Notes: generated from the sequence alone by a model not told the origin. Numbered from the stretch's first letter, positions 9,739 to 35,438 are shown. The stretch is DNA of 45,533 nt from an uncultured Gemmatimonadota bacterium (GCA_964392705.1 CAYMQZ010000004.1:1-45533); one strand, 5' to 3'. A program made the numbers and translations.

Positions 9739-10502
9739 CCCCGTGGACCGGGCAGCTCCTCCTGGCGAACGGGGTGATCTTCCTGGCCCAGCTCGCGATT
9801 CCGGGCCTGATGCAGGAGCTGTGGCTCGTGCCGGCGCTGATCCCCACCCGCCCCTGGACGCTGATCACCTACATGTTCCTGCACGGCGGCCTGTGGCACC
9901 TCGCCTTCAACATGATCGCCCTCTACTTCTTCGGGCCCCGGGTGGAGGCCCGGCTGGGCGGGACACGCTTCCTGTGGCTCTACTTCCTGAGCGGGATCAC
10001 CGGTGCCCTCCTCTCGCTCGCCTTCACGCCGTGGGCGCGGATCGTGGGGGCCTCGGGCGCCGTGTTCGGCATCCTCCTCGCGTTCGCCCGCTACTGGCCC
10101 CGGGAGAAGATCTACATCTGGGCCGTCCTCCCGATCGAGGCACGCTGGTTCGTCCTGCTCATCACCGCCTTCTCGCTGTACGCGGGCTTCACCGGGCAGT
10201 CGGGCGGCGTGGCGCATTTCGCCCACCTGGGCGGCTTCCTCGGCGGCTGGCTCTACCTGAAGTGGTCCGAGTGGCGCACGGGGGCGGCCCGGCGCGAGTT
10301 CCGGAAGAAGGTGCGGAGCCCGGCGCTCCGCGCCAGCGGCGGCGAGCTGAAGAAGAAGTTCGAGGCGATCGACCCGGAGGAGCTGCACGAGGCGAACCGG
10401 GCGGCGTACGATGAGATCGCGGGCAAGATCGACCGGGACGGCATCTCGACCCTGACGGACCGGGAACGCACCTTCATCGAGCGGTTCAGCCCGGGAGCGT
10501 GA
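9735..10502 (+). CDS. Rhomboid-family intramembrane serine protease with a charged C-terminal tail
   Basis: Motifs HGGLWHLAFNM, catalytic GASGAVFG and AHLGGFLGG. The GTG start overlaps the upstream stop (GTGA). Confidence 0.85.
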   Translation: MTPWTGQLLLANGVIFLAQLAIPGLMQELWLVPALIPTRPWTLITYMFLHGGLWHLAFNMIALYFFGPRVEARLGGTRFLWLYFLSGITGALLSLAFTPWARIVGASGAVFGILLAFARYWPREKIYIWAVLPIEARWFVLLITAFSLYAGFTGQSGGVAHFAHLGGFLGGWLYLKWSEWRTGAARREFRKKVRSPALRASGGELKKKFEAIDPEELHEANRAAYDEIAGKIDRDGISTLTDRERTFIERFSPGA

Positions 10503-13072
10503 GAGCGGTGGACCCGTCGCGGGAAGGCGGCCGGGGGACTTCCGCCCACGCGGCGAACGCGCCCGAGGCGGCGGGTCCGCCCGACGTGGGATCCCGCCGT
10601 CGGGTCCGGGCGCGGATCGAGGGGACGGTGCAGGGGGTGGGCTTCCGACCCTACGCCTACAGACTGGCGCGCGAGCTGGGACTCGCGGGCTGGGTGCGGA
10701 ACGACGCCCGCGGCGTGCTGCTGGAGGTCGAGGGAGGGGCCCGCGAGGTCGGGCGCTTCCTGGAGCGGCTGCCGGCGCAGGCTCCCCCGCTGGCGACGGT
10801 CGAGCGGGTCGAGAGCGAGGAGCGGGCGCCCGAGGGCGGGGCGGCGTTCCGAATCGTCGAGAGCGAGGGGGGCGCCCGGCCCTCGGCGCTCGTCTCGCCG
10901 GACACGGCGACCTGCGGGGATTGCCTGCGGGAGCTGTTCGACCCGGGCGACCGCCGCCATCGCTACCCGTTCATCAACTGTACGAACTGCGGCCCGCGTT
11001 TCACGATCGTGCGGGGCATCCCGTACGACCGGCCGCAGACCACGATGGCCTCCTTCACCATGTGCGAGCCGTGCCGCGCCGAGTACGAGGATCCGGGGAA
11101 CCGTCGCTTCCACGCGCAGCCGAACGCCTGCCCGGCGTGCGGCCCCACCGTCGCCCTGCGGGGCGCGGGGGGACGCCCGGTCCCCGAAGGGGACTCTCGG
11201 GACGCGGTGGAGGCGGCGGCGAGGGCGATTCTCGAGGGCGCCATCGTGGCGGTGAAGGGGCTCGGCGGCTTCCACCTGGCCTGCCGGGCCGACCACGAGG
11301 CCGCGGTGGCCGAGCTGCGGGGTCGCAAGCACCGCGAGGACAAGCCGTTCGCGCTGATGGTGCCGGACCTGTCCTCGGCGCGCGGGCTCGTCGAGCTGGG
11401 GGCCGAGGAGGAGGCTCTGCTCGCGGCGCGCGAGCGCCCGATCGTCCTGGCTCCGCGGCGGGCCGGCGCGGCGGTCGCCGAGGCGGCCGCTCCCGGCCAC
11501 CGGGACCTGGGCCTCATGCTGCCCTACTCGCCGCTCCACCACGTCCTCCTGGCGGACGCCGCCCGGCCGCTGGTGATGACCAGCGGGAACGTCTCCGACG
11601 AGCCGATCGCCTACCGGGACGAGGAGGCGATGGAGAGGCTGGCCGGGATCGCGGACCTGTTCCTGCTCCACGACCGGCCGATCCAGACCCGCACCGACGA
11701 CTCCGTGATGCGGGTCGTGTCGGTGGCCGGCGAGCGACGCCCCCTGATGCTCCGCCGGTCGCGAGGCTACGTGCCGGCGCCGGCCGATCTACCCGCCGAC
11801 GCCCCGCGGCCGATCCTGGCCTGCGGCGGGCACCTGAAGGTCACCTTCGCGCTGGCCCGGGGGCGCCGCGTCTGGGTCGGCCCCCACATCGGCGACCTCG
11901 AGAACCTGGAGACGCTCCTCTCCTTCGAGGAAGGGATCCGGCACCTGGAGCGGCTGTTCGAGCTGCAGCCGGACGTGGTCGCCCACGACCTGCACCCCGA
12001 GTACCTGTCGAGCAAGTACGCGCGGGAGCGCGCGGACCCTGCGGCTTCCCGGTCGAGCTTGCGTGGAGAGCGGGCCGGCCCCGGCCTCGAGCTCCTGGGC
12101 GTGCAGCACCACCACGCCCACCTGGCCGGCTGCCTGGCCGAGCACGGCGAGACCGGTCCGGCGCTCGGCGCGATCTACGACGGGACGGGCTACGGGCCCG
12201 ACGGCACGGTCTGGGGCGGGGAGCTGCTGCTCGGAGACCTGGAGAGCTTCGAGCGGGTGGGGTACCTGTGGCCGGTGCGCCTTCCGGGCGGCGAGGCCGC
12301 GGTCCGCCAGCCGTGGCGGATGGTCTGCGCGTGGCTCCTCGAGCTGGGGGAGGCGACCGGATCGGCAGGCGCGACCGGCGCGAGGGACGAATCGAGCCCG
12401 AAGGCCGAGACGGGGCCGCCGGGCGAGAGCGACCCGCGACGTCAGGTGCCCGCGCTTCCCGCCGCGCTGCAGGGCCGGGTCGATCCGGGGGACTGGGAGA
12501 ACGTCGCCCGGCTCGCCCGCTCGGGCCTCGCGTCCCCCGTCACCACCAGCATGGGCCGCCTGTTCGACGCGGTCTCGGCCCTGTGCGGTCTCCGGCTGCG
12601 GGTGACCTACGAGGGACAGGCGGCGATCGAGCTCGAGATGGCCGCGTCCCGGTACGACGGGAGAGCCGATGACCGGCCCGCCTATCCCCTGCCGCTCGCC
12701 GGGAGCGCGGAGGGCCGCCGGCTGCTGGACGCCCGCGCCACCGTCCGCGCGGCCCTCGAGGATCTGCAGGAGGGAGAGGCGGTCGGCCGGGTGGCGGCCC
12801 GGTTCCACGAGGGGGTCGCGGCCGGGACGGCCGAAGCGTGTCGCGTCGAGGCCGAGCGCGCCGGCGTCGAGACCGTGGTCCTGTCTGGCGGCGTGTTCCA
12901 GAACGTACGGCTCCTGGAGAGCACCGCGGCCCGGCTGGCGGCCTCCGGCCTGCGTCCCCTGGTGCCCGAGCGCTTTCCGCCCAACGACGGGGGTCTCTCG
13001 TACGGACAGGCGGCCTGCGCGGCGGCCCGGCTGGCCTCCGGCGCCGATGGGCGTCCGGCGGGCGCGAAATGA
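10499..13072 (+). CDS. hypF: [NiFe]-hydrogenase maturation carbamoyltransferase HypF
   Basis: Acylphosphatase domain (VRARIEGTVQGVGFRPYAYRLA...GWVRNDARGVLLEVEG). Two CxxC-x18-CxxC zinc fingers (CGDCLRELFDPGDRRHRYPFINCTNCGPRFT; CEPCRAEYEDPGNRRFHAQPNACPACGP). YrdC-like and Kae1-like C-terminal domains. The GTG start overlaps the rhomboid stop. Confidence 0.95.
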   Translation: MRAVDPSREGGRGTSAHAANAPEAAGPPDVGSRRRVRARIEGTVQGVGFRPYAYRLARELGLAGWVRNDARGVLLEVEGGAREVGRFLERLPAQAPPLATVERVESEERAPEGGAAFRIVESEGGARPSALVSPDTATCGDCLRELFDPGDRRHRYPFINCTNCGPRFTIVRGIPYDRPQTTMASFTMCEPCRAEYEDPGNRRFHAQPNACPACGPTVALRGAGGRPVPEGDSRDAVEAAARAILEGAIVAVKGLGGFHLACRADHEAAVAELRGRKHREDKPFALMVPDLSSARGLVELGAEEEALLAARERPIVLAPRRAGAAVAEAAAPGHRDLGLMLPYSPLHHVLLADAARPLVMTSGNVSDEPIAYRDEEAMERLAGIADLFLLHDRPIQTRTDDSVMRVVSVAGERRPLMLRRSRGYVPAPADLPADAPRPILACGGHLKVTFALARGRRVWVGPHIGDLENLETLLSFEEGIRHLERLFELQPDVVAHDLHPEYLSSKYARERADPAASRSSLRGERAGPGLELLGVQHHHAHLAGCLAEHGETGPALGAIYDGTGYGPDGTVWGGELLLGDLESFERVGYLWPVRLPGGEAAVRQPWRMVCAWLLELGEATGSAGATGARDESSPKAETGPPGESDPRRQVPALPAALQGRVDPGDWENVARLARSGLASPVTTSMGRLFDAVSALCGLRLRVTYEGQAAIELEMAASRYDGRADDRPAYPLPLAGSAEGRRLLDARATVRAALEDLQEGEAVGRVAARFHEGVAAGTAEACRVEAERAGVETVVLSGGVFQNVRLLESTAARLAASGLRPLVPERFPPNDGGLSYGQAACAAARLASGADGRPAGAK

Positions 13073-13243: not shown

Positions 13244-14521
13244 ATGACGCCACCCGAAGCGACGGCCCCGGCACCGGAGGCCCAGCTCCGGTCAACGGCC
13301 GAGATCACCCGCCGTCCGGATGTCGAGCCCGAGCCGAGCGCGAAGCGACTGCGCGAGGGCCCGCTCAAGACGATCCACGTCTTCTGGATGGCGGGGATGA
13401 GCTGCGACGGCTGCACGATCTCCGCCGCCGGCGCTACCAACCCGAGCGTCGAAGACCTCCTGAACGGCAACCTCCCCGGCCTCCCGAAGGTGATCCTCCA
13501 CCACCCGGTGCTCTCCGTCGAAGCGGGGGAGGAGTTCATCCACAACTTCCAGCTCGCCTGGGAAGGCAAGCTGGCCGCCCCGTACGTGTGCATCTACGAG
13601 GGGTCGATCGCCGACGAGCGGATCGCCGGCCGATCCGGCGGCTACTGGTCCGGCATGGGCGTGGAGCGGGGCGAGAACGGTCCCCAGCCCGTCCCGACGG
13701 CGAAGTGGCTGGAGCGCCTGGCGCCCGGAGCGGCGGCCGTGATCGCGATCGGGACCTGCGCCACCTGGGGCGGGATTCCCGCGGCCGCCGGCAACCCCAC
13801 GGGCGCGATGAGCGTGATGGACTTCCTGGGGGAGGATTTCCGAAGCGCGTACGGGCTCCCGGTGGTGAACATCCCGGGCTGCGCCCCGCAGGGCGACAAC
13901 TTCACGGAGACCGTGGCCGCCGTGCTCCTCTTCCTCCAGGGGATCGCCCCCATCCCCGACTTCGACGAGCTGGGCCGGCCCGCCTGGCTGTTCGGCGAGA
14001 CGGTGCACCGGGGCTGCACGCGCGCGGGGTGGTACGAGGAGGGCACCTTCGCCGAGGAGTACGGCGACAAGGAGTGCCTGGTCGACGTGGGCTGCTGGGG
14101 GCCGGTCGTCAACTGCAACATCGTGAAGCGCGGGGCGATCAACCACATGGGGGGCTGCATGGAGGCCGGCGGCGTGTGCATCGGCTGCACCATGCCCGGC
14201 TTCCCCGACAAGTTCAGCCCCTTCTACAAGACGCCGCCGGGCTCGGTGTTTTCGACCGCCGGCTCGCGGACCCTGGGCGGCGTCGTGCGCCGGCTGCGGC
14301 GCATGTCCATCCGGGAGCTCGACCGGGAGTCCCGGTGGGACGTCGCGGGCGACGTGCCCAGCGGCTGGGGGCACCTCCAGGAGCCGGGCATCTTCCGCAA
14401 GGCGATGCAGTTCTTCTACGAGATCTGGCAGTTCTGGGGCGCGGAGAAGCCGGGACGGGACGACGACGAGGGCTGGCCGCTCTCCCGTCCGGGCTCGAAG
14501 GACGACTACCCCGTCGGCTAG
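13244..14521 (+). CDS. [NiFe]-hydrogenase small subunit, Tat-less (uptake type, group 1h/1l-like)
   Basis: MAGMSCDGCTIS, GTCATWGGIP, PGCAPQGDNF, CTRAGW, CLVDVGCWGPVVNCN and GGCMEAGGVCIGCTMPGFPD are FeS ligand patterns of hydrogenase small subunits. There is no RRxFxK twin-arginine signal and no C-terminal hydrophobic anchor. Confidence 0.92.
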   Translation: MTPPEATAPAPEAQLRSTAEITRRPDVEPEPSAKRLREGPLKTIHVFWMAGMSCDGCTISAAGATNPSVEDLLNGNLPGLPKVILHHPVLSVEAGEEFIHNFQLAWEGKLAAPYVCIYEGSIADERIAGRSGGYWSGMGVERGENGPQPVPTAKWLERLAPGAAAVIAIGTCATWGGIPAAAGNPTGAMSVMDFLGEDFRSAYGLPVVNIPGCAPQGDNFTETVAAVLLFLQGIAPIPDFDELGRPAWLFGETVHRGCTRAGWYEEGTFAEEYGDKECLVDVGCWGPVVNCNIVKRGAINHMGGCMEAGGVCIGCTMPGFPDKFSPFYKTPPGSVFSTAGSRTLGGVVRRLRRMSIRELDRESRWDVAGDVPSGWGHLQEPGIFRKAMQFFYEIWQFWGAEKPGRDDDEGWPLSRPGSKDDYPVG

Positions 14522-14626
14522 GAAGCTCACCCGGGGGGGCGGCGCGGCCGCCGCCCGCGGAGAAGGCCGCGCGTCCGCGGCCGGCATGTCGCTCCGCGGC
14601 CGCCCTCGTCGCAAGGAAGGGAAGGA

Positions 14627-14944
14627 ATGCAGATGACCATGACCGTGCCCGAGCTCTTCCTGGACTGGGGCTTCTGGTACCTGGTCGGGACCGCCGTGGT
14701 GCTGATCGCGGCAGCGCTCCTGATCACGATCCTGCTCGTGGCGCGCTCCATCGCGGGGCACGCCGAGCGCGCCCTCGCGGCCGGTGCCCGGATCGAGGAG
14801 AACACGCGCGCCATCTGGGCCCTGCAGGACGCCCTGGAAGGGATGCGGACGATTCACGAGCGCGCCGGCGCGGTGGAGGAGAAGGCCGCGTTCCTGGCGG
14901 ACGCGGTCCACGGCGAGGGCGCGGCGCCGCGGACCGAGGCATGA
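14627..14944 (+). CDS. Small single-pass membrane protein 1 of 5 between the hydrogenase subunit genes
   Basis: 105 aa. Purine-rich SD (GGAAGGGAAGGA) upstream. One hydrophobic helix (FWYLVGTAVVLIAAALLITILLV) followed by an Ala/Glu/Arg-rich helical tail that contains RIEENTRAI. Confidence 0.7.
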   Translation: MQMTMTVPELFLDWGFWYLVGTAVVLIAAALLITILLVARSIAGHAERALAAGARIEENTRAIWALQDALEGMRTIHERAGAVEEKAAFLADAVHGEGAAPRTEA

Positions 14945-14966
14945 CCGCCGGAAGCGGGAGGCACGC

Positions 14967-15278
14967 GTGGAAGCCGTGAACGCGCCGATGTGGTGGATCA
15001 CGCTCGGCGTGGGGCTGGTGATCGTGCTCGTCGTGGCCCTGCTCCTTCAGCTCATCGTGAACACGGCCCGCCGGATCCGCGGGACCCTGGAAGCGATCTG
15101 GGTGGCGGGCCCGATGATCGCGAACAACACCGCTCACGTCGACCTCGTGCGGCGGATCAACCTGGTGGCTGGCCACATCCTGGAGGTGGCCGGCCGGATC
15201 GTCGGCCACACCGAGCGCATCCAGGAGCATGCGGACGGCTGCGCCGGGTGTCCCCACTGCGTGGTCGGATGGTCCTGA
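14967..15278 (+). CDS. Small single-pass membrane protein 2 of 5; C-terminal CxxCxxC
   Basis: About 103 aa from GTG 14967, preceded by GGGAGG 6 nt upstream (alternative starts GTG 14976, ATG 14988). Helix MWWITLGVGLVIVLVVALLLQLIV, a tail containing MIANNTAHV, and a C-terminus HADGCAGCPHCVVGWS. Confidence 0.65.
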   Translation: MEAVNAPMWWITLGVGLVIVLVVALLLQLIVNTARRIRGTLEAIWVAGPMIANNTAHVDLVRRINLVAGHILEVAGRIVGHTERIQEHADGCAGCPHCVVGWS

Positions 15279-15356
15279 TGCGACGCCCCATCCGGCACCG
15301 GAGGTCCTGATGCGAGGCGCAGCGCCGAATCGGAGACGCGGGAAGGAAGCCTGGCC

Positions 15357-15650
15357 ATGCTGTTGCTGACGGTCCTCACGATCGGCCTGGTCCTCCTGCT
15401 CGTGGGCGCGCTCGTCGTCTACCTGCTCAAGATCATCGCCGAGCTGGAGGCGATCGGAGGCGCGCCGACCAGCCTCCTGGCCCACGTGCGCTGGGGGGTG
15501 CGCGCGATCGAGGTGCAGACCCGGCCGATCGAGCCGGGCGTGGGCAGCCTGAACGCGGGTCTCGGCCAGATCGGCGAGGGACTGGCGGCGGTGCAGGCGA
15601 ACCTGCGGGGCCTGGCCCAGGCCCTGCGTAGACAGGGGTCCCGCTCATGA
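15357..15650 (+). CDS. Small single-pass membrane protein 3 of 5
   Basis: 97 aa. SD-like GGGAAGGAAG upstream. Helix LLLTVLTIGLVLLLVGALVVYLL and a helical tail containing AIEVQTRPI. Confidence 0.7.
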   Translation: MLLLTVLTIGLVLLLVGALVVYLLKIIAELEAIGGAPTSLLAHVRWGVRAIEVQTRPIEPGVGSLNAGLGQIGEGLAAVQANLRGLAQALRRQGSRS

Positions 15651-15955
15651 TCCAGGTGACGCTCCAGGCCCCGACCGCCGTGCTCGCGCTCTGGTGGGTC
15701 GCCCTCGGCCTGACGCTGCTCCTGATCGTGCCCGTCGCTCTCTACCTGCTGCACCGCACCTGGCGGGCGGCCCGGAACATCCAGCGCTACACGGCGGAGG
15801 CCCTGCGCGCCGGGGCGGGCATCGCGGCGCACACCGCGCAGCTCACGGCGCTGGACGACACGATCGCCGGGGCCGGCCCGCTGCTCGAGCGGACGGAGGC
15901 GATCCAGGGGCTCACGGCGGAGGTGAAAGAGATCCTCCTCGGGCGGGTGGGATAG
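15647..15955 (+). CDS. Small single-pass membrane protein 4 of 5
   Basis: 102 aa. ATGA overlap with the previous ORF. Helix VLALWWVALGLTLLLIVPVALYLL and a tail containing GIAAHTAQL. Confidence 0.7.
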   Translation: MIQVTLQAPTAVLALWWVALGLTLLLIVPVALYLLHRTWRAARNIQRYTAEALRAGAGIAAHTAQLTALDDTIAGAGPLLERTEAIQGLTAEVKEILLGRVG

Positions 15956-15963
15956 GAGACGGC

Positions 15964-16227
15964 ATGCTGCTCTACTGGCTCACGCTGGGCGTCGTGCTCG
16001 CGATCATCCTGGCCCTGGCGGGCTACCTGATCGCCATCGCCTGGGCGTTGGCGCGGGCGCGCGCCAACGTGGCCAGGCTGGCCGACGGCCTGGAGGCGAT
16101 CGCCGGCCACACCGATCCACTGGAAGAGAAGCTGGGGACGATCGGGAGCGCCGTCGGGCGCGTGGCCGACGGTTTCGGCGAGGTGGACCGCCACCTCGGC
16201 GAAGTGGCCTCGGCGCTGGGCGGATAG
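15964..16227 (+). CDS. Small single-pass membrane protein 5 of 5
   Basis: 87 aa from ATG 15964, with GGAGA 5 nt upstream. Helix LLYWLTLGVVLAIILALAGYLIAIAWAL and a tail containing AIAGHTDPL. Confidence 0.7.
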   Translation: MLLYWLTLGVVLAIILALAGYLIAIAWALARARANVARLADGLEAIAGHTDPLEEKLGTIGSAVGRVADGFGEVDRHLGEVASALGG

Positions 16228-16241
16228 AGGGGGAACGGATC

Positions 16242-18131
16242 ATGTGCTTCAAGAACCTGCCGATCGAGTTCGACGAGGCCGGAAGGGCCACGCTCAAGGA
16301 GGCGATCCCCGACCCGTACGCCCAGCGGGAGGTGCGGACGAAGGCGCCGCCGCAGCTGGACCGGGGGCAGATCGAGGAGCTCCTCGCCCGGAACGGCTAC
16401 CTGAAGAACGTGGACTTCGACCCGGTGACCCGGGTGGCGGGCGCGCTCGCCTTCCATTCGGTCTGCGACCTCGAGGAGCGGAAGGTGCTCGAGGCGCGCT
16501 CGATGGCCACGCTGTTCCGGGGCTACGAGATCATCGCCATGGGACGCGACCCCCGGGACGCGATCTTCATCACCAGCCGCGCCTGCGGCGTGTGCGGGGG
16601 CGTGCATTCGGTGACCTCGGCCATGGCCACGGAGATGGCGTTCGGCATCTGCCCGCCGCCATTGGGGATCGTCATCCGCAACCTGGCGCTGGCGCTCGAG
16701 TTCCTGTACGACCACCCGCTCCACCTCTTCCTGCTCGCCGGTCCGGACTACTCGGAGCAGATCGTCCGGCAGACGAACCCCGAGTACCTGGACGTCGCGA
16801 AGACGTGGGAGTGCCCGCACGCCGACCTCCACGGCTTCGCCACGATGCACGAGCTGATGGAGGAGATGAACCCGCTCACGGGGAACCTCTACCTCGAGGC
16901 GCTCCATATGACCCGGGTCGTCCGGGAGGCGTACGTGCTCATCTGCGGCAAGTACCCCCACCCGCAGACGATCGTCCCCGGCGGCATGAGCTCGACCGTG
17001 GACTTCACGGTCATGAACGAGATCTACCAGCGGGTGCAGCGCTTCTTCGACTACGGGAAGAAGGCGGTCGGCATCTGGGAGGACCTCACCGCCTTCTTCT
17101 ACGAGCGCGACCCCCGTTACCGCGAGGTCGGGTCCCGCTCACCCACCATGGTCGACACGGGCATCTTCGACCATCCCGAGGCGTACGACGCCAGGTACGA
17201 GAACGCGGGCGAATGGGGGAAGCGGCGCTGGGAGACCCCGGGCGCGATCGTCGACGGGGAGCTGGTGACGACGGACCTCCACCAGATCAACATGGGGACC
17301 GAAGAGTTCGTCGAGCATTCCTACTACGAAGAGTGGGCCTCGCACCGCCACCCGGAGGACCCGGTCGGGAACCCGCTCAGCAGGTTCCACCCCTGGAACG
17401 AGGAGACCCGCCCCAAGCCCGAGGGCCAGAGCTGGAAGGAGAAGTACTCCTGGGCGAAGTCGCCGCGTTGGGACCGCCGGGCCGCGGAGGCCGGCTGCTA
17501 TGCGAGGCTGTGGAACTCCGCCGCCGCCCGGCAGATGCCCGAGTCGGACTACATGATCCCGACCGGCCGCTCCCTGCGCTTCATCGTGCCGCGCGGGAAG
17601 CTGCCCGAGACGGAGCTCGAATGGGAGATTCCCGAGGACTGGAACGCGTTCGAGCGCAACCTCGGGCGCGCGTACTGCATCCCCTACATGGCCCTGGTGG
17701 CGCAGGAGAACTGGGAGATCGGGATGGAGCTCATGAAGCGGGGAGAGCGGAAGGTCTCGACCCCGTTCGAGGTGCCCAGGAAGGGCCACCGGATCGGCGT
17801 CGGCTTCTGGGGCGCCGGTCGGGGCTGGCTCACGCACCACCTGGAGCTGGAGAACGGCGTGATCTCCAGCTACCAGATCCTCACGCCGTCGACCTGGAAC
17901 GCCTCGCCCCAGGACCCGTGGGGGAACCCCGGCCCCTACGAGGAGGCCGTCCTCAACACGCCGCTGCTGGAGAGCTTCGACGACCCGGATCGCTTCCGCG
18001 GCGTGGACATCCTGCGGACGATACGCAGCTTCGACCCCTGCATGCCGTGCACGACCCATACGCACGTCGAAGGAGCCGACCGCGTCCTGTCGACCGAGGT
18101 GAACACCTGCGCCTGCGGCGTCGAAGAGTAG
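16242..18131 (+). CDS. [NiFe]-hydrogenase large subunit
   Basis: 629 aa. N-terminal Ni-Fe ligand pair in TSRACGVCGGVHS and C-terminal pair in RSFDPCMPCTTHTH, followed by a ~22-aa C-terminal extension (the expected endopeptidase substrate). SD GAGGGGGAA upstream. Confidence 0.95.
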   Translation: MCFKNLPIEFDEAGRATLKEAIPDPYAQREVRTKAPPQLDRGQIEELLARNGYLKNVDFDPVTRVAGALAFHSVCDLEERKVLEARSMATLFRGYEIIAMGRDPRDAIFITSRACGVCGGVHSVTSAMATEMAFGICPPPLGIVIRNLALALEFLYDHPLHLFLLAGPDYSEQIVRQTNPEYLDVAKTWECPHADLHGFATMHELMEEMNPLTGNLYLEALHMTRVVREAYVLICGKYPHPQTIVPGGMSSTVDFTVMNEIYQRVQRFFDYGKKAVGIWEDLTAFFYERDPRYREVGSRSPTMVDTGIFDHPEAYDARYENAGEWGKRRWETPGAIVDGELVTTDLHQINMGTEEFVEHSYYEEWASHRHPEDPVGNPLSRFHPWNEETRPKPEGQSWKEKYSWAKSPRWDRRAAEAGCYARLWNSAAARQMPESDYMIPTGRSLRFIVPRGKLPETELEWEIPEDWNAFERNLGRAYCIPYMALVAQENWEIGMELMKRGERKVSTPFEVPRKGHRIGVGFWGAGRGWLTHHLELENGVISSYQILTPSTWNASPQDPWGNPGPYEEAVLNTPLLESFDDPDRFRGVDILRTIRSFDPCMPCTTHTHVEGADRVLSTEVNTCACGVEE

Positions 18132-18137
18132 GCTCGC

Positions 18138-18893
18138 ATGACCCAGGGCTCCGAGCCGCCCGAAGGGGACTCCACGGCCTCCGGCGACGAGCTGCGCGCC
18201 GCGGCCTCCGGCGACGAGCTGCGCGCCGCGGCCTCCACGCTGGTCGGGGGCGTGGGATATCACGATCTCCGGGACTTCTCGGTCGGGCCCCTGCTGGTCG
18301 AGCGGCTGCGGGCGGAGAGCTGGCCGGACGGCGTCGTGGTCGAGGACCTGAGCTACGACCCCGTGAAGGTCGTCCACCGCCTCGCCGGCCAGGATCCGCC
18401 CTTCCGTCGCCTGGTCGTGGTCTCGTCGGTGCGCCGCGGGCGGCGCGCCGGCACCGTGACCGCCTACCGCTGGGACCGCTCCCTGCCGAACCCCGCGGAG
18501 ATTCAGGACCGGGTCTCGGAGGCCGTGACCGGCGTGATCGGGCTCGACAACCTGCTGATCGTGCTCCGGGCGTTCGGAGAGGCTCCTCCCGAAGTCTACG
18601 TGGTCGAGATCGAGCCGGCCGTGGAGGCGATGGGCGAGGCGCTGAGCCCGCCGGTGGCGGAGGCGGCGGCGGAGGCCGCCCGCCTCGCGCGTCGGCTCGC
18701 CCTGCACGTGGGATCCGAGCCGGCCGTCCCGACGTCGGCCCTCGGGGCCGGAGGCACCATGAACGGGCACGGAGCGGGGCCGCGGGTCACGCCCTTCGAT
18801 CCCCTCTCGCTCGAAGCCGGGACAGGCGACCGTCGGCGCGGGAGCGATCGGGCCGGTAGGGGCGATGCGCCATCGACGGGAGGGGGTTCGTGA
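18138..18893 (+). CDS. Hydrogenase-endopeptidase-like protein with apparently substituted metal ligands and a low-complexity tail
   Basis: The core LVGGVGYHDLRDFSVGPLLVERL...RLVVVSSVRRG...VIGLDNLLIVLRAFG...VYVVEIEP resembles the HybD/HyaD fold. The DA box reads SS and no His is visible at the third ligand position (by-eye alignment). The N-terminus contains a duplicated SGDELRAAA. Confidence 0.5.
   Translation: MTQGSEPPEGDSTASGDELRAAASGDELRAAASTLVGGVGYHDLRDFSVGPLLVERLRAESWPDGVVVEDLSYDPVKVVHRLAGQDPPFRRLVVVSSVRRGRRAGTVTAYRWDRSLPNPAEIQDRVSEAVTGVIGLDNLLIVLRAFGEAPPEVYVVEIEPAVEAMGEALSPPVAEAAAEAARLARRLALHVGSEPAVPTSALGAGGTMNGHGAGPRVTPFDPLSLEAGTGDRRRGSDRAGRGDAPSTGGGS
18177..18230. repeat. Perfect 27-bp tandem duplication (2 copies plus 6 nt of a third)
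   Basis: GCCTCCGGCGACGAGCTGCGCGCCGCG occurs at 18177-18203 and again at 18204-18230, followed by GCCTCC. It is in frame and encodes ASGDELRAA twice. Confidence 0.95.
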
Positions 18894-19918
18894 AGCGCGA
18901 GGAGATCGACGCGCTGTCGGAGCGTCTGAACGGCCTGCTGGCCGAGCTGGAGGCGGGCGCCCCGCCCGAGGTTCTCGAGGCCGTCGTGGAGCTGGTGGAG
19001 GGGATCCAGCGCGTGCACGCGGAGGGCCTCCGGCGGGTGGCCGAGCTGCTCGCCGAGGACCGCGAGCGCTTCGGCCGGGCGCTCGACGACCCCGTGGTCT
19101 CGAACCTCTTCCTGCTCTACGACCTGGCGCTGGTCGATGAGCGGGGGCGGGCCGAGGCCGCCCTCGAGGCCGTGCGCCCGCTGGCCCGCTCCCACGGCGG
19201 CGAGATCGAGCTCGTGGACGTGGACGAGGGCGTCGTGACGGTCCGACTCCACGGCGCCTGCCACGGCTGCCCCTCCTCCACCGCGACGCTCCGGGGCGGG
19301 ATCGAGCGGGTCCTGGTCGAGAGGCTCCCGGGCTTCGTGCGCCTCGAGGTGGCCGGAGAGGACGGCTCGACCGACGCCCCGACCGGCTCCATCCGTCCAG
19401 TCGACGCCCCGGCGGACGCGGGATCCCCGGCCGGAGATGTCGGGAACCCGGTGGGGCCCGGAGCGCTCGAGGCCGGCGGACCGGGTTCCGCGACGGGTGA
19501 CCTGTCCGTCGTGCCGCGGGAGAATCTGGTCCGGCTGGAGAAGCGGCTCTCGGAGGGCCGTCGCCGGGCTTCGAGGTCGGGTACGGGCTCGGAGCCGGAC
19601 GGCGGGTCCGGGCCCCGGCGGGTCGACGTGACGGCCCTCGACGACCTTCCTGGACAGGACCTGTTCGGCACGCTGGTCGGGAACTTTCCCCTCCTCCTGG
19701 TGCCCCTGGGCGACGGCGTGGCCGCCTACCGGAACGTCTGTCCGGGCTCCGCGCTTCCCCTCCATCTGGGCGAGCTGGAGAGCGGGGCTGTCGTCTGTCC
19801 CTGGCACGGTTGCCGGTTCGACGGCCGGACGGGCGAGCGGCGGGAGGGAGCCGGTCCGCCGCTCGAGGCGCTGTCCGCCTCGATCGAGGCGGGCCGGGTG
19901 AAGGTCGACCTCCCGTGA
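18890..19918 (+). CDS. NifU-like domain / Rieske-like domain fusion protein (HhyE/HucE-like putative FeS protein)
   Basis: The central segment HGGEIELVDVDEGVVTVRLHGACHGCPSSTATLRGGIERVL is a NifU C-terminal-type CxxC domain. The C-terminus AAYRNVCPGSALPLHLGELESGAVVCPWHGCRFDGRTGE is Rieske-like. The GTG start overlaps the upstream stop. Confidence 0.7.
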   Translation: MKREEIDALSERLNGLLAELEAGAPPEVLEAVVELVEGIQRVHAEGLRRVAELLAEDRERFGRALDDPVVSNLFLLYDLALVDERGRAEAALEAVRPLARSHGGEIELVDVDEGVVTVRLHGACHGCPSSTATLRGGIERVLVERLPGFVRLEVAGEDGSTDAPTGSIRPVDAPADAGSPAGDVGNPVGPGALEAGGPGSATGDLSVVPRENLVRLEKRLSEGRRRASRSGTGSEPDGGSGPRRVDVTALDDLPGQDLFGTLVGNFPLLLVPLGDGVAAYRNVCPGSALPLHLGELESGAVVCPWHGCRFDGRTGERREGAGPPLEALSASIEAGRVKVDLP

Positions 19919-20433
19919 TCGCGTCCCGCCGCGTCCTGGTCGCCTGCATGGGCAACGTGCTCCGGAGCGACGACGGCTTCGGAGTGGCGGTGGCGAGGGA
20001 GCTGGCGGAGCGAACGCTCCCGCCCGAGGTGACGCTTATCGAGGTGGGCACAGGGGGGATCCACCTCGTGCAGGAGCTGCTCGACGGTTACGATGCGCTG
20101 GTGATCGTGGACGCGGTCGATCGCGAGGCGGAGCCGGGCGCGGTGTTCCTGCTGAAGCCCCGCGTACCGGACCTCGACCCCATGCCGGAGGAGGAGCGGA
20201 GCGCGCTGCTGGCCGACATGCACTACACCGTGCCTTCGCGGGCCCTGATCGTCGCCAAGGCGCTGGGAACGCTGCCCCCGCGGACCTGGATCCTGGGGTG
20301 CCAGCCGCTCGAGGGCCAAGCGCTGGGGCTCGAGCTGTCCGATGTGGTGCGGAAGGCCGTGCCCGTGGCCGTGGCCCGGCTCGAGCGGCTCTGGGGCGAG
20401 CTCGGCCTGACCGAGACCGTGGGACGCCCGTGA
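19915..20433 (+). CDS. [NiFe]-hydrogenase maturation endopeptidase (HyaD/HybD/HupD family)
   Basis: VLVACMGNVLRSDDGFGVAVA, ALVIVDAVD and LLADMHYTVP supply the three conserved acidic/acidic/His metal-ligand boxes. The GTG start overlaps the upstream TGA. Confidence 0.85.
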   Translation: MIASRRVLVACMGNVLRSDDGFGVAVARELAERTLPPEVTLIEVGTGGIHLVQELLDGYDALVIVDAVDREAEPGAVFLLKPRVPDLDPMPEEERSALLADMHYTVPSRALIVAKALGTLPPRTWILGCQPLEGQALGLELSDVVRKAVPVAVARLERLWGELGLTETVGRP

Positions 20434-20879
20434 GCGAGCGCGACGGGGAGACGCCCGTGAGCCAGCCCGAGGATCGGCGAGCGGCCGGTGGCGTCGAGCC
20501 TGGCGGGGACGGCGGCGCGGGGGCGGTCGAGAGGCTCCGGCGGCGCGACGAGATGCTCCAGGTGCTCTTCTGGCTCGAGGGGGAGGGGTTCTCCTCCGAC
20601 ATGACGGCGAGGGGGATCCGGCGTTTCCTGAACTGGCCCCCCGAGAGGATCGCCGCCGGGCTGCAGGACCTCGTGCGGTCGGGCTTCGCGGTGGCCGACG
20701 AGGAGGAGGGCCGCTATCGGCTCACGCGCCAGGGGCGCCACGAGGGCGGACGCCGCTTCCTGGAGGAGTTCGCGCCGATCCTTTCGAGAGACACGCATCA
20801 CGGGAGCGAGTGCCAGGACCCCGACTGCGAGTGCCACACCTCGCCCTTGGGGGCGGCGGCCTGCCGGGCGAACGCATGA
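20430..20879 (+). CDS. Hypothetical winged-helix-like protein with a C-terminal Cys/His cluster
   Basis: GTG 20430 overlaps the upstream stop (alternative ATG 20553). LQVLFWLEGEGF...IAAGLQDLVRSGFAVADEEEGRYRLTRQG looks like a winged helix. The C-terminus is THHGSECQDPDCECHTSP. Its stop overlaps the ATG of the CooC-like gene. Confidence 0.55.
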   Translation: MSERDGETPVSQPEDRRAAGGVEPGGDGGAGAVERLRRRDEMLQVLFWLEGEGFSSDMTARGIRRFLNWPPERIAAGLQDLVRSGFAVADEEEGRYRLTRQGRHEGGRRFLEEFAPILSRDTHHGSECQDPDCECHTSPLGAAACRANA

Positions 20880-21655
20880 AGATCGCTATCGGAGGCAAGG
20901 GAGGCACGGGAAAGACGACCGTGGCCGGCACCCTGGCCCGGGCCCTGGGCCAGGCCGGTCGCGACGTGATCGCCTTCGACGGCGACTCCAACCCGAACCT
21001 CGCGGCGATCGTCGGCTTCCCTCCCGAGGGGACATCGGAGATTTCCGAGCTTCCGCGTGACCTGTTCGAGATCGTGGAGGAGAACGGCGAGCGGCGCCGC
21101 GTGCTCACCATGCCGCCGTCCAAAGTGGTGGACCGCTTCGGGACGGTCGGACCGGACGGGGTCCGCCTGCTGGTGGGGGGGCGCGTCGGCCATGCGGGCG
21201 CGGGGTGAATGTGCCGAGCCCACGCCACGGTCCGTGGCCTCATCGGCGAGTTGGTCGGAGCGGAGCTCGAGGGACGTGACGTCGTCCTCGACATGGAGGC
21301 GGGGCTCGAGCACATGAGCCGCGGCACGCCGCGGCACGTGGACACCCTGCTCGCCGTCGTCGAGCCGTACTTCCGGTCGCTCGAGGCGGGACGGCGGGTC
21401 GTGGAGCTGGCCCGCGAGCTGGACGTTCCCGCCGTCTACGCCGTGGCGAACAAGGTGCGGAGGGACGACGACGCGGCCGCGATCCGGGAGTTCTGCGACC
21501 GCCACGAGCTGCCGATCCTGGTCTCGATCCCCTTCGACGAGTCGATGATCGACGCGGAGCGCGAAGGCCAGGCCCCGATCGACCACGACCCGGCCTCGCC
21601 GGCCGTCTCCGAGATCCGCAGGCTGGCCGGGGCGCTCGTGGCGGACGGGGGATAA
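20876..21655 (+). CDS. CooC-type (MinD/Mrp-class) Ni-insertion ATPase interrupted by an in-frame TGA at 21206-21208 (candidate Sec codon, or pseudogene/split gene)
   Basis: P-loop MKIAIGGKGGTGKTT. Track ORFs 20810-21208 and 21209-21655 are in the same frame and are separated only by the TGA. The joined sequence GRVGHAGAG-[TGA]-MCRAHATVRGLIGEL...VVLDMEAGLEHMSRGT...LLAVVEP aligns with CooC GTVNHAGSG-C-VCPEHALVRTLL...DMEAGIEHFGRGT. Confidence 0.7.
21218..21247 (+). promoter_or_regulatory. SECIS-like stem-loop downstream of the in-frame UGA
   Basis: The apical stem GCCACG (21224-21229) pairs with CGTGGC (21233-21238) around loop GUC (or a 5-bp stem with loop GGUCC). The lower stem GCC (21218-21220) pairs with GGC (21245-21247) across an internal loop. 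The apical stem begins 15 nt after the UGA. Confidence 0.35.
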
Positions 21656-21683: not shown

Positions 21684-23486
21684 TCACGGCCCGCTCCCGT
21701 CGTCCTCTGTGGCCGGGTGCGGGGAGGGGATGGCCGAGAGGAGCGCCACCGTGTAGGGATGGGCCGGGTGGGAGAACACCCGTTGCGCTTCCCCGACCTC
21801 CACCAGCCGTCCCAGGTACATCACGGCGACGCGGTGAGCCACCGAGCGGACGACCGCGAGGTCGTGGGCGATGAGCAGCATGGAGATCCCCAGCTCGGCC
21901 TGTAGGTCCCGAAGCAGTCCCAGGACCCGGGCGCGCACCGCCGCATCCAGGGCGGTCACCGGCTCATCGAGCACCAGGACCTCGGGGTCGAGGGCCAGGG
22001 CCCGCGCGATGCCCACACGCTGGCGCTGTCCGCCCGACAGCTGGTGCGGATACCGGCCGGCCAACTCGGGCTCCAGCCGCACGAGCTCCAGGAGCCGACG
22101 CACGCGGGCCTCGCCGCCGGCCGCCCGGAAGCGGCCGTGCGCCCGGAGCGGCGCGGCCACGGTCTCGGCCACGGTGCGGCGCGGGTTGAGCGAGGCGAGC
22201 GGGTCCTGGAAGACCATCTGGATGCGGGCGCGCAGCCGGCGCAGCCGGCGCCGATCCGCCGAGAGGAGGTCCTCGCCGTCCAGGTACACGTGGCCCGCGA
22301 CGGGGCGGTCGAGGGCGAGCAGCGCGCGAGCCAGGGTCGATTTCCCGCAGCCCGATTCCCCGACCAGGCCCATCGTCTCGCCGCGGCGGAGCTCGAAGCT
22401 CACCCCGTCCACCGCGCGGACCGTGGCGCTCCGCGCCCGGGGGCCGTCGCCGCGGTGCTCGACGATCAGGTCCACGACGCGAAGGACCGGCTCCGTGGCG
22501 GCGCCGTCCGTCCCAGGCGCCCGATGCGGGCCGGTCGGCGGGTTCAGGGCGGCCGGCGCGCTCGGGCCGCTCGGCGGGCTCGCCGTGATCCGGGACCCCC
22601 CCTCCGCCCCCGGCTTCGGGCGCGCGGTCCCGTTCGACGGCCCCAGGAGATCCGCGGCCGCGAGCAGCTCGCGCGTCTTCTCCCGCTCCGGATTCGCGAA
22701 CAGCTCCCGGATGGGACGGAACTCGATCACGCGTCCCCCGTCCATGACCGCGACGCGCTCCGCCAGCTGGGCGACGACGGCCAGGTCGTGGGAGATCAGG
22801 AGCGCGGCCGCCCCGGTGTCCCGCAGCGCCTCCCGCAGCAGCTCGAGGATCTGGGCCTGGACGGTCACGTCGAGCGCCGTCGTCGGCTCGTCCGCGATCA
22901 GGAGGCGAGGGCCGTTCGCGATCGCCATGGCCACGACCGCCCGCTGTCTCATGCCCCCGGACCACTGATGGGGGAACGGATGGCGTTCGGCGTGCGCCGC
23001 GGAAATCCCGACTCGTTCCAGGAGTCCGAGCGAGCGTCGGCGGGCCTCCCGCCTCGAGAGGTCCGTGTGCGCCCGCAGGGCCTCCGCGACCTGATCCACG
23101 ACGCGATACCAGGGGTGGAGCGAGGACAGCGGATCCTGGAAGATCATCCCGATCTCGCGTCCCCGGAGCCCTCGCACTCGACGCTCGGGGAGTGAGAGCA
23201 CGTCACGGCCGCGCCAACCGATCCGGCCCCCGATCGCGTGCCGGGCCGGGAGGAGCCGGAGGATCGAGAGGGCCGTGAGCGTCTTCCCGCTTCCCGATTC
23301 GCCGATGAGGCCCACGGTCTCCCCGGCGCGGATCTCCAGGTCGACGCCGCGCAGGGGTCGAGCCCACCCTTCCCGGGTCTCGAGCTCGACGCACAGGTCG
23401 GTCACCCTCAAAAGCTCGCCGCCCCCCGGCGGCTCGCCGCCCGCGAGCCCCGATCCTCGATCGGCCGTCCGCTTTCGTTCGGCCAT
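21684..23486 (-). CDS. Fused double ATP-binding protein of a peptide/nickel-type (Dpp/Opp/Nik) ABC importer
   Basis: 600 aa from ATG at 23486. Two ABC cassettes (GESGSGKT...SGGMRQR...LLIADEPTTALD and GESGCGKST...LSGGQRQR...VLVLDEPVTALD) joined by a Pro/Ala/Gly linker. The longer track ORF (to 24194) overlaps the permease and was rejected. Confidence 0.9.
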   Translation of the reverse strand: MAERKRTADRGSGLAGGEPPGGGELLRVTDLCVELETREGWARPLRGVDLEIRAGETVGLIGESGSGKTLTALSILRLLPARHAIGGRIGWRGRDVLSLPERRVRGLRGREIGMIFQDPLSSLHPWYRVVDQVAEALRAHTDLSRREARRRSLGLLERVGISAAHAERHPFPHQWSGGMRQRAVVAMAIANGPRLLIADEPTTALDVTVQAQILELLREALRDTGAAALLISHDLAVVAQLAERVAVMDGGRVIEFRPIRELFANPEREKTRELLAAADLLGPSNGTARPKPGAEGGSRITASPPSGPSAPAALNPPTGPHRAPGTDGAATEPVLRVVDLIVEHRGDGPRARSATVRAVDGVSFELRRGETMGLVGESGCGKSTLARALLALDRPVAGHVYLDGEDLLSADRRRLRRLRARIQMVFQDPLASLNPRRTVAETVAAPLRAHGRFRAAGGEARVRRLLELVRLEPELAGRYPHQLSGGQRQRVGIARALALDPEVLVLDEPVTALDAAVRARVLGLLRDLQAELGISMLLIAHDLAVVRSVAHRVAVMYLGRLVEVGEAQRVFSHPAHPYTVALLSAIPSPHPATEDDGSGP

Positions 23487-24328
23487 CACCGTCCCCTCCC
23501 CGCGGCGGTCAGCGCGTCCCCCAGCAGGTTGAATCCCAGCACCGCGACCACGATGGCCAGGCCCGGGAAGACCGCCAGCCACCAGGCCGTGCGGAGGAAG
23601 GGCTGCGCCTGGGCCGCCAGGTAGCCCCAGCTCAGTGCGCTCGGATCCGTCACTCCCAGGAAGCCCAGGCCGGCCTCGATCAGGAGCACGCGGCCGAGGA
23701 TGAGCCCGAGCAGGGCCACGGCGGCCGGCAGCGCGTTCGGCAGGATCTCCGTCCACAGGATCCGACCGGGCGAGGCCCCGCCGGCTCGCGCCGCGAGGAC
23801 GAACTCCCGCTCGCGGAGCGTCATCACCTCCGCCCGCACCACCCGCGCCAGCAGCGTCCACGAGGTCAGGCCCAGCACCAGGATCAGCGTCGCCAGCCCG
23901 GGTCCGAGGAGGGCGATCGCCAGAATCGCGAGGAAGAAGCGAGGGACGACCTGCACGACCTCCGTGGCGCGCATGAGCAGGTCGTCCGTCCAGCCGCCCG
24001 CGAAGCCCGAGACGGCCCCGATCGCGCAGCCGAGGAGCAGCGCGAGGCCGCCCACGGCGACGGTCACCAGGAGCGAGGTCCGAGCGCCATACAGGATCCC
24101 GCTCAGCAGATCCCGCCCCAGGGGGTCGGTGCCCAGCGGGTGCCCGGGACCGGGCGGCGCCAGAGCCGGGCCGGCGATCTCGAACGGGTTCCACGGCGCC
24201 ACGGCCGGCCCCAGGAGCCCGAGGAGCACGAAGCCCGCGAGGATGGCCGCCCCCACGAGCCCACCTGGACGCCGGAGCGCCGGGGCCCCGACGCCCGCGA
24301 CCGCGGCCGCCAGGCGGGCCTCAGCCAT
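23486..24328 (-). CDS. ABC peptide/nickel permease (DppC/NikC-like)
   Basis: 280 aa with multiple TM helices. N-terminal PLGTDPLGRDLLSGILYGARTSL and the EAA-loop region FVLAARAGGASPGRILWTEILPNALP. Confidence 0.9.
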   Translation of the reverse strand: MAEARLAAAVAGVGAPALRRPGGLVGAAILAGFVLLGLLGPAVAPWNPFEIAGPALAPPGPGHPLGTDPLGRDLLSGILYGARTSLLVTVAVGGLALLLGCAIGAVSGFAGGWTDDLLMRATEVVQVVPRFFLAILAIALLGPGLATLILVLGLTSWTLLARVVRAEVMTLREREFVLAARAGGASPGRILWTEILPNALPAAVALLGLILGRVLLIEAGLGFLGVTDPSALSWGYLAAQAQPFLRTAWWLAVFPGLAIVVAVLGFNLLGDALTAAGRGR

Positions 24329-25286
24329 AGCGCACCCGGGGGTCGAGCCGGGCGTAGGCGAGGTCGGCGAGCAGGTTCCCCAGGAGCACGCCGAAGGCGA
24401 CCAGGGTGAAGATCCCGAGCAGGACCGGGCTGTCCCGGGTCTGGACGGCGTCCACCAGCAGACGGCCGATCCCCGGCCAGCCGAAGACGATCTCCACGAG
24501 CACGGCCCCCGAGACCAGGAAGCCCAACCGCGACCCGAGCACGGTGACGACCGGCAGCAGGGCCCGCGGCAGCGCGTGCACCAGGGTCACGCGCCACGGG
24601 GGGAGCCCCTTGGCCCGGGCGGTCCGTACGTGGTCCGACGCCATCTCGTCGATCAGGGCCTCCCGGGTGAGCCGGGCGATCGCCGCGAGCTGCTGGGAGG
24701 CGAGCACGAGGGCGGGAAGCGCCAGGTGGCGGGCCACGTCGAGCCACCGCTCCGGGCCCGTCGCCTCGGAGCCCGGCGTCACCATCCCCTGGATCGGGAA
24801 GACCCCCAGGCCGAAGGCCAGGCCCAGGATGGCGAGCTGCCCCAGCCAGAAGACCGGGGAGGCGTACAGGGTCAGGGCGCCCACCGAGACGACCGCGTCC
24901 GGCCAGCGGCGGTGTCGGGTCCCCGCGGCCACGCCGGCCAGGAGGCCCAGGACCGTGGACAGGACGAGGGATGTGGCGGCCAACAGGAGCGTGGGCGGGA
25001 GCCGCTCGGCGATCACGGCCATGGCGGGGCGCCCATGGATGTAGGAGAGGCCGAAGTCTCCCCGCACGAGTCGGCCGAAGTACGTCGCGAGCCGCTCGGG
25101 AAGCGGTCGGTCCAGGCCGAACCGCTCGCGCATGAAGGCGAAGTACGCCGCGTCGCCGTGTTCCCCGGCCAGCGCGAGGACGGGGTCGCCCGGCGCGAGA
25201 TGGATCAAGAGGAAGCCGATCAGGACGATCGCGGCGGCCGTGAGGAGAGCCTGGACCGCCCGCCGGACCAGATAGCGGCCGCTCAT
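24321..25286 (-). CDS. ABC peptide/nickel permease (DppB/NikB-like)
   Basis: 321 aa from ATG at 25286 (MSGRYLVRRAVQALLT...). Typical HLAPGDP and DHVRTARAKGLPPWRVTLVHALPRALLPV motifs. Confidence 0.9.
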   Translation of the reverse strand: MSGRYLVRRAVQALLTAAAIVLIGFLLIHLAPGDPVLALAGEHGDAAYFAFMRERFGLDRPLPERLATYFGRLVRGDFGLSYIHGRPAMAVIAERLPPTLLLAATSLVLSTVLGLLAGVAAGTRHRRWPDAVVSVGALTLYASPVFWLGQLAILGLAFGLGVFPIQGMVTPGSEATGPERWLDVARHLALPALVLASQQLAAIARLTREALIDEMASDHVRTARAKGLPPWRVTLVHALPRALLPVVTVLGSRLGFLVSGAVLVEIVFGWPGIGRLLVDAVQTRDSPVLLGIFTLVAFGVLLGNLLADLAYARLDPRVRYG

Positions 25287-25296
25287 GCTCCACCGC

Positions 25297-26928: not shown

Positions 26929-27236
26929 GCGAGCCAAGGTAAGGATGCGCGGTCGGGACGCGCACGGCCCGACCCCCGGGCGCTTCCCGCGGCGGCACGC
27001 GTGCGGTCGGACGGCCCGCCGTGCGGCGACTCCATGGAGGGCGAGCCTTGACACGCCCCGTCCCGGTTCGAAGCTTTCGGCGTTGGAGGGCATCTCGTTC
27101 GACGAGTCGCCCGGGATGTAGACCAGCCGAGAGCGCGTCCCGGATCGCTCCAGAGACGGCCGGCTTCTTGCTCCGTGGAACGGTCGCCGGGACGAGATTC
27201 AGCCCCCTCGATTCCGATTGCCGGGAAGGTGTGACC

Positions 27237-35391: not shown

Positions 35392-35438
35392 GGCGGGAAT
35401 ATAGGGCGGCGCCGGCCCCCTGCGGAGGGACCCTCCAT

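Follow-up and report, generated by a model that had tools for sequence, protein, structure and literature searches.

The closest described counterpart of the locus reported here, a [NiFe]-hydrogenase operon in a 45,533-nucleotide (nt) stretch of DNA from an uncultured Gemmatimonadota bacterium (GCA_964392705.1 CAYMQZ010000004.1:1-45533; this whole stretch is referred to as the window), is the group 1l (Hyl) gene cluster of Hymenobacter roseosalivarius. That cluster encodes a small subunit (HylS), five short, single-pass proteins (HylTM1-5), a large subunit (HylL), a protein of Rieske type (HylE), and an endopeptidase for maturation (Ortiz et al., bioRxiv 10.1101/2020.08.06.239558). Supplementary Note 1 of the same study describes a proximal cluster with four Cys ligands where group 1h enzymes have an Asp, a HylS that is extended at its C terminus, and one HylTM bearing a tri-cysteine motif; it gives the HylTMs as 12-30% identical to each other, and it already contains the hypothesis that they act as membrane anchor or electron outlet (10.1101/2020.08.06.239558). 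In a 2026 AlphaFold3 model for H. roseosalivarius, the HylTMs intertwine as membrane-anchoring, tube-like scaffolds beside the HylS extension (PMC13554262), and aerobic, high-affinity oxidation of atmospheric H2 is known for this organism from the literature (PMC13554262, PMC10305171).

The group 1h enzymes (Hhy; Cupriavidus necator HofKG, PDB 5AA5, and mycobacterial Hhy) resemble the window hydrogenase in providing its closest solved structure, in lacking a twin-arginine (Tat) signal, and in having a NifU-family gene after the large-subunit gene, and the literature describes them, like group 1l, as high-affinity aerobic uptake enzymes. They differ in that the small- and large-subunit genes (S and L) adjoin each other (with 38 nt between them in pHG1) and no transmembrane (TM) genes are present, that Asp replaces Cys at the proximal cluster, and that DUF5947 and DUF6084 genes lie downstream. 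Huc (group 2a, Mycobacterium smegmatis, PDB 7UTD) is a cytoplasmic uptake hydrogenase without a Tat signal, and a helical tube of HucM tethers it to the membrane and lets its distal cluster reach quinone; this tethering concept is reportedly that of Grinter et al. in 2023. The resemblance between HucM and the HylTMs is functional only: a HylTM profile compared with all PDB sequences finds nothing below E = 0.11, with matches to generic coiled coils and HAMP and none to HucM. Moreover, Hyl has five different single-pass paralogues where Huc has one membrane-associated protein, and the large subunits are only distantly related. In the Isp-type group 1e operons (hynS-isp1-isp2-hynL), the haem-b membrane protein Isp1 and the HdrD-like iron-sulfur (Fe-S) protein Isp2 are encoded between S and L, and Tat exports the enzyme to the periplasm. 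Genes for a membrane or electron-transfer module separate S and L in the window also, but they encode five single-pass proteins without a Pfam domain and there is no Tat motif; it is gene content, not large-subunit identity, that sets the window operon apart from group 1e.

Gene order and group 1l placement of the hyl locus

A first-pass annotation of the window placed the small- and large-subunit genes 1.7 kb apart, with five same-strand open reading frames (ORFs) of 87-105 codons between them, and the ORF coordinates and codon-position G+C content show this to be correct throughout. The gap between hylS and hylL, which encode proteins of 425 and 629 amino acids (aa), is 1,720 nt long and holds five genes on the same strand. 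After hylL come a protease paralogue that has degenerated, then hylE and hupD, and hyp maturation genes flank the operon on either side. The operon consists of the following genes, with third-position G+C content (GC3) and maximal hydropathy given for the five small ones:

13244-14521, + strand: hylS, [NiFe]-hydrogenase small subunit (Pfam NiFe_hyd_SSU_C and Oxidored_q6)
14627-14944, + strand: first hylTM, 105 aa, ATG start; GC3 0.94; hydropathy 2.88 at residues 20-38
14967-15278, + strand: second hylTM, 103 aa, GTG start; GC3 0.91; hydropathy 3.07; C-terminal H-A-x2-C-x2-C-P-x-C
15357-15650, + strand: third hylTM, 97 aa; GC3 0.93; hydropathy 2.92
15647-15955, + strand: fourth hylTM, 102 aa, ATGA overlap with the third; GC3 0.97; hydropathy 2.47
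15964-16227, + strand: fifth hylTM, 87 aa; GC3 0.93; hydropathy 2.75
16242-18131, + strand: hylL, [NiFe]-hydrogenase large subunit (Pfam NiFeSe_Hases; RACGVCGGVH and DPCMPCTTH motifs)
18138-18893, + strand: X251, protease-fold paralogue of 251 aa (hhalign against HupD; TIGR00072)
18890-19918, + strand: hylE, NifU-like and Rieske [2Fe-2S] protein (Pfam NifU, Rieske)
19915-20433, + strand: hupD, maturation endopeptidase (Pfam HycI; codon-position G+C)

The top large-subunit matches in public protein and genome collections are 83-65% identical and come mostly from metagenome-assembled genomes (MAGs) of Gemmatimonadota and Acidobacteriota; with a best match of 83%, the window HylL is a new sequence. 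A genome scan with the large subunit yielded 532 relatives, the best 80 of which (62-82% identity) are used for all locus comparisons below. In a neighbor-joining tree with 50 bootstraps and references from annotated plasmids (group 1h HofG of C. necator and the M. intracellulare enzyme; group 1d HoxG; group 2b HoxC), the window HylL and 60 of these loci (62-82% identity) form one clade in 50/50 bootstraps, sister to group 1h. The window protein is 40-41% identical to these group 1h references (40-44% for the clade as a whole) and 31-32% identical to those of groups 1d and 2b. Among the members of the clade are MGR_bin contigs. These represent the Mackay Glacier MAGs with which Ortiz et al. 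defined group 1l, and every MAG hydrogenase in that study belongs to one of two groups, 1h and 1l (bioRxiv 10.1101/2020.08.06.239558); MGR_bin286 carries its group 1h enzyme on a contig other than the one matched by the window HylL. A search of a plasmid collection with HylL returned only group 1h enzymes (39-42% identity) and no further group 1l example. The first-pass annotation had pointed to a group 1l lineage with this layout (S, about five short TM genes, L), which agrees with the description by Ortiz et al., and the phylogeny that it suggested as a check places the window protein accordingly, with the Mackay Glacier contigs.

The subunits themselves carry the features expected of this group. 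The closest solved structures are 5AA5_A for HylS (51% identity over the aligned part) and 5AA5_C for HylL (42% over the aligned part), and the [NiFe]-site motifs of HylL, RACGVCGGVH and DPCMPCTTH, are invariant in the clade. The proximal-cluster motif of HylS is SCDGC, with four Cys, in the window and its orthologues, versus GCDGD in 5AA5_A. HylS also has a conserved C-terminal extension (about residues 366-425) with the motifs VPSGWGH and FFY..WQ.WG..KPGR, which runs about 60 residues past the end of the 5AA5_A alignment, compared with about 100 in the published group 1l note. As annotated at first pass, HylS has neither a Tat signal nor a hydrophobic C-terminal anchor; both the twin-arginine motif and any hydrophobic segment are missing from the window protein and from 53 orthologues, and because HylS lacks an export signal, the catalytic HylSL core is expected to stay in the cytoplasm. 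An absence of cytochrome b from the island had likewise been annotated, and Pfam detects no such domain in the ORFs scanned between 10.5 and 31 kb.

Two further features of HylL are peculiar to the clade. Residues 1-46 (window 16242-16380) form an N-terminal extension starting MCFKNLPIEFD, with Met-Cys in 61/61 sequences, and residues 607-629 (window 18060-18131) include NTCAC in the tail beyond the DPCxxCxxH cleavage motif, found in 58/61; the references of groups 1h, 1d, and 2b have neither. Conservation of three Cys at the two ends of HylL points to an additional metal site or to a handle for maturation.

Taken together, the published group 1l features are all present: the four-Cys cluster, the HylS extension, the lack of a Tat signal, a tri-cysteine HylTM, the NifU-Rieske HylE, and a HycI-type protease. 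Gene order also matches, as does the relationship to group 1h, and CbiA-type and SIS genes lie nearby in the published cluster as in the window (an SIS-domain gene is detected in the island by Pfam). The tri-cysteine protein is encoded by the second gene after hylS in the window and is named HylTM4 in the paper, which would fit if the published numbering runs from the hylL side. Judged by its sequence, the window operon is thus a complete further example of the published group 1l [NiFe]-hydrogenase.

The arrangement is widely shared. Among the 51 loci with at least 3 kb of sequence 5' of hylL, 47 have the S-TM1..5-L layout, with a median distance of about 1.6 kb from the end of hylS to the start of hylL, and in these 47, which come from at least nine phyla, the five HylTMs occur in the same order at 30-67% amino-acid identity; neither a failure of the ORFs to be conserved nor a lineage-specific insertion, which the first-pass annotation had raised as outcomes that would count against it, is borne out by this synteny. 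In three of the 51, hylS adjoins hylL and two to four HylTM-family genes lie just 5' of hylS. Because these three adjacent loci are nested in the clade among canonical ones, S-L adjacency is a secondary rearrangement, a nested variant that is a new detail of the present analysis. The HylTM genes stay linked to hylS and hylL in either layout. Variant layouts are found in loci L024, L067, and L072 (and L015).

The five HylTM genes and their products

The G+C content of the window is 72%, and long open frames are abundant in all six frames. Nonetheless, the five hylTM ORFs have third-position G+C of 0.91-0.97 and second-position G+C of 0.44-0.49, the same as hylS and hylL, and this signature is missing from their antisense and alternative frames. 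It also delimits the genes: the second and fifth hylTM lie within longer stop-to-stop frames whose upstream portions lack a coding signature. A GGAGG-like purine run precedes the start of four of the five, and the fourth has the ATGA overlap and only a weak purine run, in keeping with the ribosome-binding runs or overlap annotated for each at first pass. The fourth gene is also called by public gene callers, as a 'hypothetical protein'. Searches of the five products against Pfam and NCBIfam found no family, apart from one sub-threshold NrfG match that we regard as noise.

Each HylTM has a single N-terminal segment with a Kyte-Doolittle hydropathy of 2.5-3.1 over 19 residues, above the threshold of 1.6 taken to indicate a membrane helix; no segment of such hydropathy is present in HylS, HylL, X251, or HylE. 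Almost no Lys or Arg residues stand ahead of the helix and two to three stand right behind it, both in the window and in 56 orthologue sets, and because the positive charges concentrate behind the helix we predict an N-out/C-in topology. An AlphaFold2 model of the fourth HylTM (a monomer, from a shallow alignment) has a mean predicted local distance difference test score of 87, with one helix at residues 10-75 and another at 77-101. The N-terminal hydrophobic helix and helical tail described for the five at first pass are thus recovered, and each HylTM is predicted to consist of one N-terminal membrane helix followed by a helical tail of about 60-70 residues on the cytoplasmic side.

Each HylTM position has its own orthologue set among the related loci; the first has orthologues in 56 loci, and those of the fifth are 32-64% identical. 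The five are also related to each other. Profile comparisons with hhalign give probabilities of 98.7-99% for the TM1/TM2/TM4 pairs, 98.7% for TM3/TM5, and 82-94% for TM5 against TM1, TM2, and TM4, with reversed sequences as controls reaching at most 52%. By this comparison all five HylTMs are paralogues within a single small family of stand-alone proteins, a new detail of the present analysis. An exhaustive profile search of 1.84 billion cluster representatives found only 530 members, and because nearly all of the best 150 of the 530 are 80-185 aa long, the family appears to be narrow and its members to stand alone; a word-indexed homologue search with the fourth HylTM found 24 close relatives only. 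The five small genes are therefore real, conserved, and co-linear.

The second HylTM is distinctive in ending with HADGCAGCPHC (H-A-x2-C-x2-C-P-x-C), matching the published 'tri-cysteine HylTM'. The motif is kept in 45 of 57 orthologues of this protein, the other four HylTMs are almost free of Cys, and the tail is a candidate ligand for a metal or an Fe-S cluster. With about a fifth of related loci lacking it, the motif cannot be essential for every family member. The loci without it belong mainly to Chloroflexota, Verrucomicrobiota, and Planctomycetota, together with a Sphingomicrobium and an Armatimonadota MAG, and they retain the five genes. Loci observed to have all five genes and no His/Cys3 tail are L003, L033, L046, L053, L057, L059, L063, L071, L075, L077, and L078.

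Possible roles of the HylTM proteins

We consider it probable that the window encodes a group 1l Hyl enzyme in which a HylTM stalk tethers a (HylSL)2 core to the membrane's cytoplasmic side and delivers its electrons to quinone. One copy of each HylTM would bundle into a helical stalk, and the stalk would hold (HylSL)2 at the inner membrane face, with the conserved C-terminal extension of HylS as the probable point of attachment. Membrane quinone would then be accessible to the distal [4Fe-4S] cluster, and electrons from H2 could enter the aerobic respiratory chain. The first-pass annotation had proposed that the five proteins may anchor an enzyme that faces the cytoplasm and does not depend on Tat, or serve as its electron outlet, and the predicted topology and the conservation of the genes are consistent with it.

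Several points weigh against this proposal. A place for the HylTMs in the mature enzyme as subunits, and their action as quinone binders or cofactor carriers, is something that we infer. The tri-Cys motif is missing in 12/57 loci, in one of them through an in-frame stop, and one of the 51 loci has only four TM genes between S and L. The evidence for membership in group 1l is the clade together with the MAG contigs and the features in common, and not an alignment to the H. roseosalivarius references. Finally, two marine isolates encoding group 1l enzymes consumed no H2 in culture (PMC10305171), so that activity cannot be assumed for every group 1l carrier.

A more elaborate version, in which the five HylTMs, one of each, form a hollow stalk that both anchors (HylSL)2 and carries quinone or electrons (the latter through a metal centre at the His/Cys3 motif), is possible, although we lean somewhat against it. 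Its outline has already been proposed in the literature. If it is true, the hollow stalk would be a module coupling hydrogenase to quinone, with an evolutionary origin separate from those of cytochrome b and HucM.

The alternatives differ in what the HylTMs are for. One His and three Cys make up the distal-cluster ligand set in [NiFe]-hydrogenase small subunits, and the match of the His/Cys3 tail to this set raises the question as to whether the HylTMs serve mainly as an electron wire, with the second HylTM ligating an extra Fe-S cluster, perhaps shared across a dimer, that would pass electrons from the HylS distal cluster to the membrane. Retention of the motif in 45 of 57 orthologues, next to four HylTMs that are essentially Cys-free, speaks for this, and the same idea was raised by Ortiz et al. 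(10.1101/2020.08.06.239558). However, 12 of the 57 loci lack the motif and otherwise retain all five genes, and the motif lies where a tail of about 70 residues ends, distal to the membrane, and could not reach quinone alone from there. We regard this explanation as rather unlikely in itself; it is compatible with a stalk that anchors the enzyme, and the two are not exclusive.

It is less likely again that the HylTMs are assembly, maturation, or regulatory factors, for example keeping the apo-enzyme at the membrane while its cofactors are inserted. Maturation genes are plentiful in the island, the extra protease-like paralogue and two HypC genes among them, and four of the five HylTMs have no recognizable cofactor-binding domain, as might be expected of such factors. 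Against this, the hylTM genes lie between the structural genes and are spaced tightly or overlap, an arrangement suggestive of equimolar co-translation, and a set of five distinct paralogues whose order is fixed across phyla is more in line with a defined hetero-oligomer than with a chaperone. The published AlphaFold3 model also puts the HylTMs against HylS (PMC13554262).

We see very little room for assigning the enzyme to another subgroup, either as a group 1h hydrogenase with an insertion or as an Isp-type group 1e enzyme, even with a group 1h protein (5AA5) as closest structure and with two genes between S and L in group 1e. Identity to group 1h large subunits is only 40-42%, and group 1h loci have adjacent S and L followed by NifU, DUF5947, and DUF6084 genes and an Asp at the proximal cluster; the intervening proteins of the window are single-pass rather than a multi-helix haem-b Isp1 or an HdrD-like Isp2, and there is no Tat signal. 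Membership in group 1h or 1e is excluded by the S-L layout, the proximal-cluster Cys, the tree clade, the single-pass genes, and the lack of Tat. A gap that is a lineage-specific insertion or non-coding spacer, its ORFs being artefacts of the kind common in six frames at 72% G+C, deserves practically no credence and is refuted by a codon-position signature specific to the five frames and by conservation of protein sequence and gene order in 47/51 loci of many phyla, with 530 cluster representatives.

Neighboring genes and wider context

Among the genes downstream of hylL, X251 is clearly related to the HupD/HycI maturation protease (hhalign, 99.96%; TIGR00072, 58.9 bits, above the cut-off) and lies directly 3' of hylL in 54 loci. 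All three of its metal-ligand positions are lost, so it is probably non-catalytic. The position of hylE is kept in 48 related loci. The hupD frame is open from 19810, with a coding signature in codon-position G+C only from the GTG at 19915. A scan of 12.8-21.8 kb for promoter and terminator consensus sequences found nothing, which is uninformative for a non-enterobacterial genome of 72% G+C. The operon is flanked by the following genes:

10499-13072, + strand: hypF, carbamoyltransferase, directly 5' of the operon (Pfam HypF_C_2, Sua5_yciO_yrdC, zf-HYPF, HypF_C, Acylphosphatase)
20553-20879, + strand: 108-aa protein, rich in Cys and His (conserved in related loci; no Pfam or NCBIfam match)
20876-21655, + strand: CooC-like P-loop nucleoside triphosphatase, with an in-frame TGA at 21206-21208 and a hairpin at 21224-21238
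21684-27093, - strand: Opp/Nik-type ATP-binding cassette (ABC) transporter (solute-binding protein, two permeases, and a fused double ATPase)
27231-27515, + strand: hypC (Pfam)
27512-27763, + strand: second hypC-like gene (HypC/HupF family), in tandem with the first (Pfam)
About 27790-28875, + strand: hypD (Pfam)
28872-30098, + strand: hypE (Pfam)

Inserted in the island, the ABC transporter separates the hyl operon from hypCDE; it could import nickel. Two other gene sets in the window are unrelated to the hydrogenase: a HepT-like RNase and nucleotidyltransferase forming a toxin-antitoxin-type pair (34575-35496, - strand), and a histidine-specific S-adenosylmethionine methyltransferase (38701-39729, + strand; Methyltransf_33, EgtD-like).

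The 108-aa protein ends in H-G-E-C-x-D-P-x-C-D-C-H...C, a motif kept in related loci. There are 61 tblastn matches to it in these loci; the 45 listed come from 44 loci and lie mostly between hupD and the CooC-like gene. We infer a role in nickel handling or regulation. Because hypA and hypB were not found in the window, the protein and the CooC-like ATPase may be a nickel-delivery pair.

The CooC-like gene is the source of what is possibly a newer observation, and the most interesting side result of the analysis. Its best PDB match is CooC1 of Carboxydothermus hydrogenoformans (3KJE; E = 5e-30), and the in-frame TGA aligns to the first Cys of the CxC metal-binding motif in that protein. At the same column in 46 orthologues beside group 1l operons, there are 30 TGA codons, 16 Cys codons (TGC/TGT), and no TAA or TAG, and the TGA-bearing loci are spread across many phyla. 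A hairpin, GCCACG-GUC-CGUGGC, begins 18 nt 3' of the first TGA base. In 22 distinct TGA-bearing sequences, 86% of its cells are paired, versus 30-45% with the partners slid, three of the six pairs show compensatory changes, and a mean of 5.3 of the 6 pairs is kept in TGA-bearing genes versus 3.6 in Cys-bearing genes encoding the same peptide. The GGUC loop resembles the SelB-binding loop of the selenocysteine insertion sequence (SECIS) of E. coli fdhF. The pattern looks like that of a selenocysteine/cysteine pair with a SECIS-like hairpin, and the gene probably encodes a nickel-insertion ATPase that contains selenocysteine and is split in two by gene callers. Rfam recognizes no family in the whole window or around the TGA, a tRNA scan of the window found no selenocysteine tRNA and no other tRNA, and the literature searched holds no report of a selenocysteine-containing CooC. 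At about 11824-12561 of locus L059 there is a second, more distant CooC-like paralogue with two apparent in-frame stops (G*P*CG; the L041 relative has GCPC-CG).

For the group 1l hydrogenases as a whole, the published picture is unchanged, the gene arrangement and the anchor hypothesis being already in print. What the comparison of 80 loci adds is a distinction between constant features, namely the five paralogous single-pass genes, their N-out/C-in topology, and the HylS extension, and optional ones, namely the tri-Cys motif and where the TM genes lie with respect to hylS. In Antarctic desert soils, no hydrogenases are reported to be more abundant than those of group 1l, which are also common in polar seawater, and with such abundance, the route by which electrons from trace H2 enter respiration matters for the global H2 sink.

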